A stretch of DNA of 64,000 bases from Phycisphaeraceae bacterium (GTDB taxonomy: Bacteria > Planctomycetota > Phycisphaerae > Phycisphaerales > Phycisphaeraceae). Below are positions 39,001 to 42,000 of this stretch, piece by piece. Made by a program: the position numbers. The stretch spans positions 4,032,001 through 4,096,000 of the forward strand of contig OY771506.1 of NCBI GenBank assembly GCA_963674705.1, read 5' to 3'. Within the stretch, counting starts at the first letter, position 1; the number at the start of each line of letters is the position of its first letter.

Positions 39001-42000
39001 CGAGTGTGTCGCTGAACGAACACAAGAGGGCACCCACAATAGTGATACCACTGATCGCGTTTGATCCGCTCATCAGCGGAGTGTGCAACGTGGCAGGCAC
39101 CTTGGTGATCACCTCAAACCCGATGAAGATCGCGAGCACGAAGATGATGAGACTGGTTACAAAATCCATGGAAGTATTCCGTATCGTGTGTCTGGTTTAG
39201 ATTCAAAGTTCCTTGCGTACTTCGCCATTATGCGTAATCACGCCGCCGTCCTGAACTTCGTCTTCGAGATTAATTTTGAGCTGGCCTTCAACGATCAGGT
39301 CCTTGAGGAGGTTGAACACGTTGTTGGCGTAAGCCTGAGAAGCGTGGGTGGGGATCAGCGAAGGCAGGTTGAGTGTGCCCACGATGGTCACACCGTTGTC
39401 GGTGGTGACCACCTCGCCGGGCTTGGTCAACTCGCAGTTGCCCCGGCCGTGCTCGGGATTGGCGGCCAGGTCGACGATCACGCCACCGGGTGGCATCTTG
39501 TTGACCACATCTGCCGGGATCAGCATCGGCGGAGCCTTACCGAAGACCGCAGCGGTGGTCACCACCACGTCGGCGCCGACGATGTGCTTGGTCATCAATT
39601 CGGTCTGCTTGCGTTGCTGCTCTTCGCTCTGTTCCTTGGCATAACCGCCAGCGGTTTCTGCGTCGGTGGTTTCCATAGGCAACTCGACAAAGCGGGCGCC
39701 CAAGGATTGCACCTGCTCCTTCGTTGCGGGCCGTACATCGTAGGCTTCGACGATCGCGCCCAATCGTTTGGCGGTGGCGATCGCCTGCAAGCCGGCGACG
39801 CCGACGCCGATGATGAATACCTTGGCCGGGGCAAGCGTGCCCGCGGCGGTGATCATCATCGGGAACATCTTCGAGCAGTGGTCCGCACCGAGCAGCACTG
39901 CCTTGTACCCGCCGATGTTCGCCTGGCTGGACAATACGTCCATTGCCTGGGCACGGCTGATACGCGGGATAAATTCCAGCGATACAGCGGTGACCTTACG
40001 GTCCGCCAGCTTACGCATCAGATCGGCGTTCTGGAACGGAGCGAGCATGCCGACCAGCACGGACCCTTCCTTCATCTGCGCGATCTGTGATTCGCTTGGG
40101 GGATTGATCACTGTGACGACATCGGCCTCGGCCCAGATAGCTGCGGGGGCTTCGCCGTCACTCGGCACAACTGTAGCACCGGCATCGGTAAAGGCCTGAT
40201 CGCGGATGTGGGCGCCATCGCCCGCACCGGATTCGACCACGACCTCGACTTCCATCCCGACAAGCTTCTTGACTACCTGTGCGGTCAGGGCAACACGGGT
40301 TTCGCCTTGCCCACTTTGTTTGGGAACTGATAGTTTCATGCGTTTTCCTGGATGAGCTATCAAAAGATGGTGGGATATTACAATCTTGTCACAATCTTGT
40401 CACATATGGAAAACTAGAGCCGCCCAGAAATATTTAAGATCATTAGAATGCCAAATATGAGATTCACTAGTTTCCAAGTTCCCACCCACGATCGTGACCA
40501 GATGATAGAGGTGACTGGCACAATTCGCAAAATCGTCGCAGATTCCAGCGTACAAAATGGCAGGGCAACGGTTTATGTCCCACACACGACCGCCGGTGTG
40601 ACCATCAACGAAAACGCTGATCCGGACGTGGTTCACGACATGCTCAAGCAACTGGATCTGATGGTGCCATGGTCGCAACCTTTCTACCGACACGCTGAAG
40701 GCAACAGCGCCTCACACGTCAAAGCATCAATGATGGGCTCGAGTGTGACCGTTCTGATTCAAGACGGTCGACTTGTGCTTGGTACGTGGCAGGGGGTATG
40801 GTTCTGTGAATTCGATGGCCCAAGGACGCGTAAAGTCCACGTGTGTCTCGAAGGTAGTTGAGAAATAGACCGTAGTTAGAATGTCAGCATCCTAAGATAG
40901 TCGAGAATCAATTTCTGAGTTAATCCACCAATTCACCAATCACCCGGCCCTTCGCTTCGCTCAGGTCCGGCGTTGGTAAAGAAACATCACAGAACCGATA
41001 CCCGAACCACGAAAGACGAAAGACGAACCATGCCCGATTACCCGCAAGTCCTGATGAGCACCAGCGAAGGCGATATCAAACTCGAACTCTGGAATGATGT
41101 TGCGCCCGGTCATACCGAAAACTTCCTCAAACTCATTGATGAGGGTTTTTATGACGGATTAAGTTTCCACCGGATAATCCCCGGATTCATGATCCAAGGC
41201 GGCTGCCCGCTAGGTAACGGCACGGGTGGACCCGGCTGGCAGATCAAGGCTGAATTCAACGACCGCGAACACCAGCCCGGCGTGCTTTCCATGGCTCGAA
41301 GCCAGGACCCGGATTCTGCGGGTTCACAGTTTTTCATCTGTCTTACGCGTGAAAACTGTCAGCACCTTGATGGTCAATACACCGCTTTCGGCAAGGTACT
41401 CGAAGGCATGGATGTGGTTAAAAAAATCGGTCAATCCGCCAATGGTCCCGCGCCGGTAATGAAGAAAGTCGCCCGCGCATAAATCAGGCAATTTGCTTGT
41501 GATCTTTGCGTGCAAAAATACCCTTATCCGACGGCATGATGACTGAAAAAACAAACCCCGCTGTCGCCGAAGCGACAACGGGGCGGAGGGGAGAAAGCAC
41601 GTTAATAGCTAGATACTCGACCTATAGAGATTCCAGTCTCCACTTTTTTAGTTGAAGAAGTCTCCAACTTCAAGCAGAAACATTACCCAGTTTACCAGAT
41701 TGTGGATAACTCTAGTCTTTCTCCAGCCTTTGTTTAGCGAGCAATGCGGCTCCGATAATCCCGGCGTCATCGCCCAACTTACTCGCCACTATCTTACACT
41801 TAGAATGGCCCGGAGGGAAGACGTATTCTTCGTAAACTTCACGAATTAGCGTAATCCAGTCATTTTCCAAGGCCTCCGTGAGCCCACCGCCGACCACCAC
41901 ACAGGGTAAGCTCAGCAGGGTAACCACGTTGGCGATACTGACGCCTAGATAATGGGCCGCCTGTCCGATAACTGAAACTGTCAGTTCATCGCCTTTTTTG

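Follow-up and report, generated by a model that had tools for sequence, protein, structure and literature searches.

What does a C-rich 14-mer, followed by a hairpin and a U-run, do behind a ROK-family kinase gene of a Phycisphaeraceae bacterium (GCA_963674705.1), and on which transcripts would an RNA ending in it act? The locus lies on contig OY771506.1, within the 64,000-nt stretch of DNA (positions 4,032,001 to 4,096,000) that was analysed as a whole and is referred to here as the window (Table 1). The initial annotation had proposed a core trans-acting sRNA that works without Hfq or ProQ and chiefly blocks GGAGAAAG ribosome-binding sites (RBSs) of PEP-CTERM surface-protein genes. A conserved, order-restricted and probably trans-acting RNA emerged from our analysis as well, but not the PEP-CTERM regulon. 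The best explanation, to which we would give about an even chance, is a predicted 60–90-nt trans-acting sRNA that transcripts of an exopolysaccharide (EPS) programme would trap and destroy, i.e., a decoy relationship or mutual titration.

Table 1. Annotated and predicted features around the element (coordinates counted from the first nucleotide of the window).
Feature	Position	Strand	Remarks
Cyclophilin gene, convergent, neighbour only	41030..41482	+	Pfam Pro_isomerase
Intrinsic terminator, stem-loop and U-run	41545..41584	-	12–13 bp hairpin directly 3′ of the seed
Predicted sRNA body	41547..41638	-	length about 90 nt if started at P1, about 60 nt if at P2; variable in its 5′ part
Conserved 5′ arm of the terminator stem	41576..41583	-	in pairing region; 75/91 loci
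Invariant C-rich seed (14-mer), predicted single-stranded toehold	41584..41597	-	exact in 127/144 family genomes
P2, alternative-sigma-like promoter	41617..41642	-	TGGAG-N17-TCGA, within the 5′ part of the RNA
P1, sigma70-like promoter	41645..41673	-	–35 TTGAAG (41673–41668), 17 nt, –10 TAAAAA (41650–41645)
Conserved upstream element, putative regulator site	41683..41697	-	24/72 loci vs. 8/1689 background windows
DnaA-box-like 9-mer	41701..41709	-	9/72 loci vs. 5/1197 background windows
ROK-family kinase gene	41712..42680	-	Pfam ROK, E 1.6e-61; nearest upstream gene in 56/85 loci
Amidase (gatA-like) gene, upstream, same direction	42723..44180	-	Pfam Amidase; precedes the RNA directly where ROK is missing (12/85 loci)

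The minus-strand seed, hairpin and U-run could all be confirmed, the element having a fold z of –3.98. Its description as an RNA gene behind the ROK gene was right for the majority of loci; in the others listed in Table 1 the same place is taken by the amidase gene, which we take to be gatA, and the downstream neighbour differs between loci. The 14-mer starts 115 nt after the ROK stop codon on the same strand, and a terminator scan found no U-run terminator in between, which argues for a 3′-end RNA carrying promoter motifs of its own; the ROK mRNA probably ends at the RNA's own terminator. Judged from sequence, the element is therefore a 3′-end RNA of the gatA-(rok) transcript with predicted promoter motifs, rather than a free-standing gene.

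The sigma70-type promoter claimed for the RNA held with respect to its 17-nt spacer, which the P1 motif shows in 35/74 loci (any other spacer in at most 7; background 0.2%), but its –10 box reads TAAAAA, with a T at the last position in only 1/35. Moreover, a second motif is present, i.e., P2, for which the form TG(G/A)AG-N17-NCGA recurs at this spacing in 24/74 loci (other spacers in at most 2; relaxed motif in 31/74). Transcription would start near 41638 from P1 and near 41606 from P2. Further upstream, the conserved element at 41683..41697 lies mostly 97–102 nt before the seed, with a position weight matrix match in 44/70 loci, and the adjoining 9-mer resembles what we assume to be the DnaA-box consensus. 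The 5′ part of the RNA, inspected by eye, differs in length among loci without keeping a frame, and no start codon following GGAG was seen by eye on the plus strand of this locus.

The conserved part had been taken to be the 14 nt of the seed, whereas the core spans about 22 nt, because CCCCGTTG directly follows the seed in 75/91 loci; these 91 loci were chosen by the 14-mer alone, so that the arm count is not circular. The 5′ arm of the terminator, CCCCGUUG, is thus conserved like the seed, although its invariance within alignment A1, which was partly selected on the arm, is circular. Across the 69 distinct sequences of A1, 96% of the stem cells are paired and 43 cells changed on both sides, with the covariation confined to three loop-proximal variable pairs. 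At one stem pair, 36 of these sequences have U-A and 33 have U-G, a variation that fixes the transcribed strand. The seed itself is predicted to be mostly unpaired (mean probability 0.81–0.88 here; median 0.72 over 74 loci). In a 95%-identical relative, no substitution falls within 41547–41684, compared with 34 in 695 nt (P ~0.001).

The reported spread of the exact 14-mer, i.e., 126/143 other family genomes against 1/144 for the reversed control, was reproduced. A scan with the 22-nt core returned 119 matches; among the 80 listed, most belonged to Phycisphaeraceae, Phycisphaerales or Planctomycetota and few were labelled otherwise, and the complete genome of strain ZRK32 contains the core. 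A covariance model found the RNA in groups f1 (7/7 genomes), f3 (4/4), f4 (1/2) and f2 (1/7); in other orders its matches were weak, with E no better than 2e-5, and came from 7 genomes among the 151 searched. Within its own genome the seed occurs in four exact copies, rather than the three previously counted, the fourth (contig position 3196618, plus strand) ending an RNA of about 290 nt. Seed and terminator together also end unrelated mRNAs, namely those of htpX, hsp20, a PEP-CTERM gene and a flgM-like gene, and 4/27 other loci (2 by a stricter count), as well as g38, have a seed-like tract before the hsp20 terminator. The earlier statement that no Rfam family covers the element was upheld: none of the Rfam 15 covariance models, including ChiX, RsaE/RoxS, 6S and SRP, matched it or the other copies, and two matches elsewhere were at chance level (E 0.84 and 4). 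Likewise, no Hfq (PF17209), ProQ (PF04352) or KhpA/B (PF13083) was found in this 96.6% complete genome, in line with what had been reported for the first two; it encodes three CsrA homologues and one RNase III.

The proposed regulon was re-examined on hexamer-based gene calls of our own (4156 genes, some with wrong starts, 343 of them PEP-CTERM). GGAGAAA was again enriched in PEP-CTERM leaders (23/343 vs. 13/3813 others; odds ratio 21). The initial annotation had cautioned that purine-rich RBSs of highly expressed genes might inflate this enrichment; other purine-rich words (AGGAGGA with an odds ratio of 44, GAGGAGA and more) are equally enriched. Leaders were then compared between five genomes without the RNA (best covariance-model E 0.027–0.2) and four other carriers, small samples in which related genomes are not independent of one another. 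PEP-CTERM leaders paired with the seed at –11.7 kcal/mol in non-carriers (n = 59), –9.5 in other carriers (n = 64) and –10.6 in the own genome (n = 292). Restricting the comparison to leaders with a Shine-Dalgarno (SD) sequence gave –12.4 (n = 52), –10.9 (n = 47) and –12.1 kcal/mol (n = 208), respectively, so that non-carriers differed from other carriers in the wrong direction (p 0.01) and the own genome did not differ from non-carriers (p 0.62). The GGAGAAA word itself was present in 4/52, 5/47 and 21/208 of these SD-bearing leaders.

Silencing of PEP-CTERM genes at GGAGAAAG-type RBSs as the chief role of the RNA is therefore improbable in our estimation: leaders from genomes that lack the RNA match as well or better, the word occurs in 23/343 genes only, the three CsrA homologues could equally explain GGA-rich leaders, and G257, a sister-family carrier, keeps the seed without a single PEP-CTERM match. 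What speaks for it, apart from the GGAGAAA enrichment, is that seed energy contributes beyond what 16S-tail energy and purine content do (LR 37.5; 2/503 shuffles as high), that only 3/476 shuffles keeping CCUCC separate PEP-CTERM from other genes equally well, and that 2/3 genomic one-mismatch complements precede PEP-CTERM-type starts (one judged by eye). On the leaders compared, the purine-rich style of PEP-CTERM genes is class-wide; the RNA may well hit some of them, yet such leaders would not explain the RNA. The upstream element was also considered as a link to PEP-CTERM genes and rejected, given 7 hits at PEP-CTERM loci of carriers vs. 6 at those of non-carriers; its odds ratio of 4–8 near PEP-CTERM genes of the own genome applies to both strands and is confounded by A/T content.

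A different set of partners came from searching the own genome with the seed and arm together. While a whole-genome scan with the seed alone was swamped by G-rich repeats, this query yielded two non-self sites far above all others, i.e., the spacer of an EPS operon (–59.8 kcal/mol, with a second site there at –40.2) and the leader of a 68-codon gene (–49.2); like all pairing energies in this study other than the cofold calculation, these are hybridisation-only. Best hits, all under curated cut-offs, place this operon in the XrtA/PEP-CTERM EPS type (sugar transferase, export protein, chain-length protein, ATPase and tyrosine kinase), and the gene after the kinase is stp1-like in relatives (TIGR03087, under cut-off). 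A complement in this spacer had already been noted but was understated, as there are two tandem sites with far wider conservation. Orthologues of the kinase were collected by protein from 30 genera, giving 21 true orthologues from 21 genera. In 16/21, the first 400 nt behind the kinase stop codon contain at least one site with an energy of –32 kcal/mol or below, and seven of the 16 have two. Position controls gave 0/21 each (antisense, upstream CDS and far downstream), and no site followed in-family paralogues (0/8) or the kinases of non-carriers (0/13), the latter being distant homologues (92–160 bits) and not orthologues; the paralogue locus L474 (no tblastn hit) and the g38 locus L538 (no downstream sequence) were left out. 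Among 25 shuffled queries, none reached more than 7/21 spacers.

Pairing is predicted to include the seed/arm junction in 16/16 positive spacers, and the first seven bases of the arm are paired in 16/16 best partner duplexes, which would account for the sequence conservation of the arm. The sites occupy all three reading frames and, in a wider set, 26/42 lie in no SD-led ORF, suggesting that the constraint acts on nucleotides. Across the family, about 44 non-self sites (counted by hand) were found among the 150 listed of 190 matches to the complement pattern, against 2 for the control; outside the order, the pattern occurred in 8/221 genomes and its reversed control in 6, i.e., at chance. Median pairing is 20 bp. 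Opening the arm would cost 21 kcal/mol, and cofolding predicts a net gain of –30 kcal/mol, from which we infer chaperone-free pairing over about 20 bp.

Some carriers depart from this pattern. No spacer site was found in 5/21 orthologues, nor in the carrier G290 (–21.1) or in G101, and G141 (78% complete) has the site without a hit for the RNA. In seven g38 genomes that lack the canonical RNA, both the site and stp1 are absent as well, which counts as one event. Among RNA-bearing groups, the kinase was detected at E ≤ 1e-40 in 0/3 genomes of g3, 0/2 of g17 and 1/5 of f3; since the RNA is kept where the kinase is not found, the EPS spacer alone does not explain the invariant seed. No compensatory changes between seed and site were seen, the carriers of variants having either no kinase at this cut-off (g17) or neither site nor stp1 (g38). 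Two further candidates were discarded. A site in the coding sequence of an RpoS-like sigma factor (–39.4 in the own genome) recurred in 2/36 carriers (p 0.24 vs. 21 non-carriers). Sites specific to the lineages of other genomes (upstream of flagellin, sppA-like and further genes) had no counterpart in the own genome, where 6/7 orthologous leaders were weaker than –24 kcal/mol and one reached –31.6.

Partner transcripts were linked by their promoters. T(T/C)AAG-N16-NCGAT lies upstream of the EPS operon in 10/10 orthologues, compared with 0/5 paralogues and a background of 27/4156; it also precedes wza in genus g3 (6/6) and the 68-codon gene at 13/13 loci, 12 of which come from one genus or were picked by their site. 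By motif, one promoter class, TTAAG-N16-NCGAT, is thus common to three types of partner transcript. A relaxed form also precedes the gene of the RpoS-like sigma factor in 31/36 carriers and 7/21 non-carriers. Genome-wide, spacing peaks at N16 for TTAAG (16 vs. 2–5) and at N17 for TCAAG (12 vs. 0–5), fliM bears TCAAG-N17-CCGAT, and the own genome has a FliA/WhiG gene. Both classes resemble sigma28 (FliA) promoters as given in PMC12784957, the –10 NCGAT being similar to GCCGATAA and the –35 TTAAG or TCAAG to TCTAAAG; they differ in their longer spacing and, for the N16 class, in also preceding the RpoS-like sigma gene. P2 shares the 17-nt spacing of the TCAAG class with a different –35, so that its cognate sigma factor is a guess; as a genome-wide promoter class P2 was dropped, its –35 giving no peak across the genome.

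Conserved complementary sites at unlinked loci, as found here, fit a trans-acting sRNA. They also bear on a reading without any trans pairing, in which a protein would bind the C-rich tract and stem at the ends of the gatA-rok, hsp20 and htpX mRNAs, or a 22-bp DNA word in either orientation. This would account for seed and terminator ending several unrelated mRNAs, as for the seed-like tracts before other hsp20 terminators (4/27 and g38), but it leaves aside the RNA's own, strictly spaced promoter motifs, the U-A/U-G variation of its stem, the restriction of complementary sites to the sense strand of partner transcripts (16 vs. 0) and the promoter class that links them. We regard it as very improbable, slightly more so than the PEP-CTERM regulon.

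In genus g3, the site falls in the last part of wza, a terminator following about 140 nt further on (5/6 by script), and so appears to travel with the transcript of the promoter, not with a downstream RBS. At the 68-codon gene, whose 68-aa product is found in 2/30 other genera and has no match in Pfam, NCBIfam or Atlas, the site of g1 and g27 covers part of the RBS or lies right next to it, and an ATG follows 8–26 nt behind the site in 12/13. This latter arrangement fits plain repression better than a decoy.

Indeed, the sites might be ordinary targets, the RNA repressing the stp1-like glycosyltransferase gene (by cleavage or polarity), destabilising wza mRNA and blocking the RBS of the 68-codon gene, with no meaningful consumption of the RNA itself. 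Besides the RBS overlap in g1 and g27, such an account can draw on the RNase III encoded in the genome, on the loss of the site along with stp1 in g38, and on the spacer sites lying 24–308 nt upstream of the conserved beginning of the stp1-like domain, with some of them in its first codons or in short uORFs. Set against this, most spacer sites are off any RBS at widely variable distances, no gene lies between the g3 site and its terminator, pairing of the arm at a cost of 21 kcal/mol would be unnecessary for simple RBS blocking, and 0/23 sites in the unbiased 21-genus set (as opposed to a few pattern-picked ones) are perfect. We consider ordinary targeting possible, though on the unlikely side; a decoy is favoured because three unlinked transcript types share one promoter class and no gene follows the g3 site. 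Since both readings require the same duplex, trans pairing of the RNA with the EPS programme, in either direction, is likely.

For the decoy, the mechanism could run as follows. The open C-rich seed would act as a toehold and nucleate pairing on the G-rich sites, whereupon the partner would displace the 3′ strand of the terminator and unzip the stem of the RNA. Lacking its protective 3′ stem, the sRNA would decay, as ChiX does on chbBC. Through mutual titration, slime production would acquire a threshold: the EPS programme would stay off until an alternative sigma factor supplied sufficient partner RNA, which would then also free the seed-only targets of the sRNA. No seed-only target that a decoy could release was found, and the PEP-CTERM leaders, considered in this role, fit the seed in the own genome but not in a carrier-specific way.

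Relatives of such a mechanism are known. For ChiX (MicM) of E. coli and Salmonella, the spacer of the chbBC operon pairs with the sRNA and destabilises it, as described in 10.1101/2021.05.11.443692, and according to PMC4474525 pairing alters the 3′ terminator region of the sRNA. Here, too, an operon spacer has sites predicted to reach the terminator arm, which is the ChiX–chbBC type of pairing (arm paired in 16/16 duplexes). Unlike the present RNA, for which no Hfq was found, ChiX is Hfq-dependent, with a porin as its known target; the pairing predicted here covers about 20 bp, the sites are often tandem, they occur in three transcript types of one promoter class, and the absence of an Rfam match indicates no sequence relation. 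The C-rich seed is reminiscent of RoxS and FsrA of Bacillus subtilis, families to which the element has no Rfam match, and C-rich seeds are described as common among Gram-positive sRNAs (PMC12205990). In PMC8216469, G-rich sponge regions of RosA are reported to neutralise the C-rich RoxS and, through the opening of a stem-loop, to make it decay faster; RosA is an ncRNA in its own right and opens the 5′ stem, whereas the G-rich sites considered here are in mRNAs and would open the terminator. Like the 3′-end sRNAs DapZ and MicL (as presented in PMC4474525), the RNA probably has a terminator in common with its host mRNA, as well as internal promoter motifs; those two are Hfq-dependent, while the promoter motifs here lie just behind the stop codon of the host, i.e., gatA-(rok). 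The RNA would thus act like known C-rich sRNAs with decoys, yet no Rfam family contains it, and the chaperones looked for were not found.

Only 8 sRNA families in Rfam are given for the whole PVC group in PMC9029176, and a table in PMC2864571 names one planctomycete motif. No description of an sRNA circuit in Phycisphaerae was found in the literature covered, a scope outside which most subscription journals and all supplements fall.

A more elaborate form of the decoy model, which we think unlikely as a whole, is a natural, chaperone-free toehold switch for a swim-or-stick decision of Phycisphaeraceae. A flagellar-class promoter would make the RNA, the RpoS-like sigma factor would make several G-rich decoys (the EPS operon, wza and the 68-codon gene) to unzip the terminator and so destroy the RNA, and the sibling of about 290 nt would keep its seed locked until released. 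If this were true, cells would switch on EPS synthesis together with the translation of surface-protein mRNAs that match the seed.

What the analysis offers is a near-core RNA, a partner for it that is conserved and can be named, and a specific, testable mechanism, together with two promoter classes for alternative sigma factors. By serving as part of the recognition sequence, the terminator arm of the sRNA could take the place of Hfq. For the Phycisphaeraceae, the findings point to post-transcriptional control of EPS synthesis in bacteria whose surface proteomes are very large.

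A seed-like tract followed by a terminator, resembling the invariant C-rich seed and terminator of the sRNA behind the ROK gene, closes the hsp20 gene in several genera and, in single lineages each, htpX and a PEP-CTERM gene; the same arrangement ends, again in a single lineage, a gene that we take to be flgM-like. These ends are possibly sibling 3′-end RNAs. In genus g17 (loci L510 and L511), the seed behind the ROK gene carries a single U-to-G change, and a search for a partner with which to test covariation with this variant found none.

A fourth seed copy ends a predicted structured RNA of ~290 nt, preceded by a sigma70-like promoter of its own. 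This RNA lacks the conserved terminator arm of the sRNA, has no match in Rfam, and occurs in two genera (g1 and g20; 8 sequences); in the consensus fold, the seed is locked by a conserved internal anti-seed. Seed-only scans of the genome studied here were dominated by abundant REP-like palindromic repeats (e.g., at contig positions 488835, 3334343, and 5114993), whose G-rich arms match the seed in part.

Coordinates of the features discussed (L-numbers, sequence loci)
Feature	Position	Strand	Remark
68-aa orphan protein gene	L214:7107-7313	-	extended site in leader
stp1-like gene	L215:9911-10585	-	224 aa
~290-nt RNA	L210:249-578, contig 3196618	+	predicted; ends in fourth seed copy
Upstream element TGT(G/T)AAnnTRGGTAA	window 41683-41697, also genome-wide	- (at sRNA locus)	
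RpoS-like sigma factor gene	L575:1330-2214	+	
fliM	window 2247-3275	-	TCAAG-N17-CCGAT promoter
Seed-like tract and terminator at gene end	L304, L310, L514-L527, L545, L547, L558, L565, L504, L027		
uORFs reaching spacer site	L447, L462, L464, L263, L215		

Extended sites are complementary to both seed and terminator arm. Short, SD-led uORFs of 19–33 codons run into the kinase-stp1 spacer site of the EPS operon (12/42 sites), and several stop inside it. The adjoining stp1-like protein measures 224 aa here vs. ~400 aa in other genera; its gene looks truncated. A TTAAG-N16 promoter lies upstream of the site in the 68-aa protein gene leader; this protein is present in 2/30 other genera and has no match in Pfam, NCBIfam, or Atlas. 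A flagellin leader of genome G123 (L491) also holds an extended site, with no counterpart in our genome. Three CsrA homologues are encoded in our genome (contig 2265493, 373215, and 3577816), one adjoining a flagellin gene.

The upstream element of the sRNA locus, a putative regulator site, was intergenic in 41 of the 49 best PWM hits genome-wide, and was over-represented before PEP-CTERM genes on both strands (odds ratio 4–8). A TTAAG-N16-CCGA promoter before the RpoS-like sigma gene is kept in 31/36 sRNA-carrying genomes, and this gene is possibly autoregulated; the motif also stands upstream of a presumed gmd gene and of others that presumably code for a response regulator and for an ABC permease. 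Finally, the TCAAG-N17-CCGAT class yielded 12 upstream matches at the 17-nt spacer vs. 0–5 at other spacers, and may represent the FliA promoter of Phycisphaeraceae.
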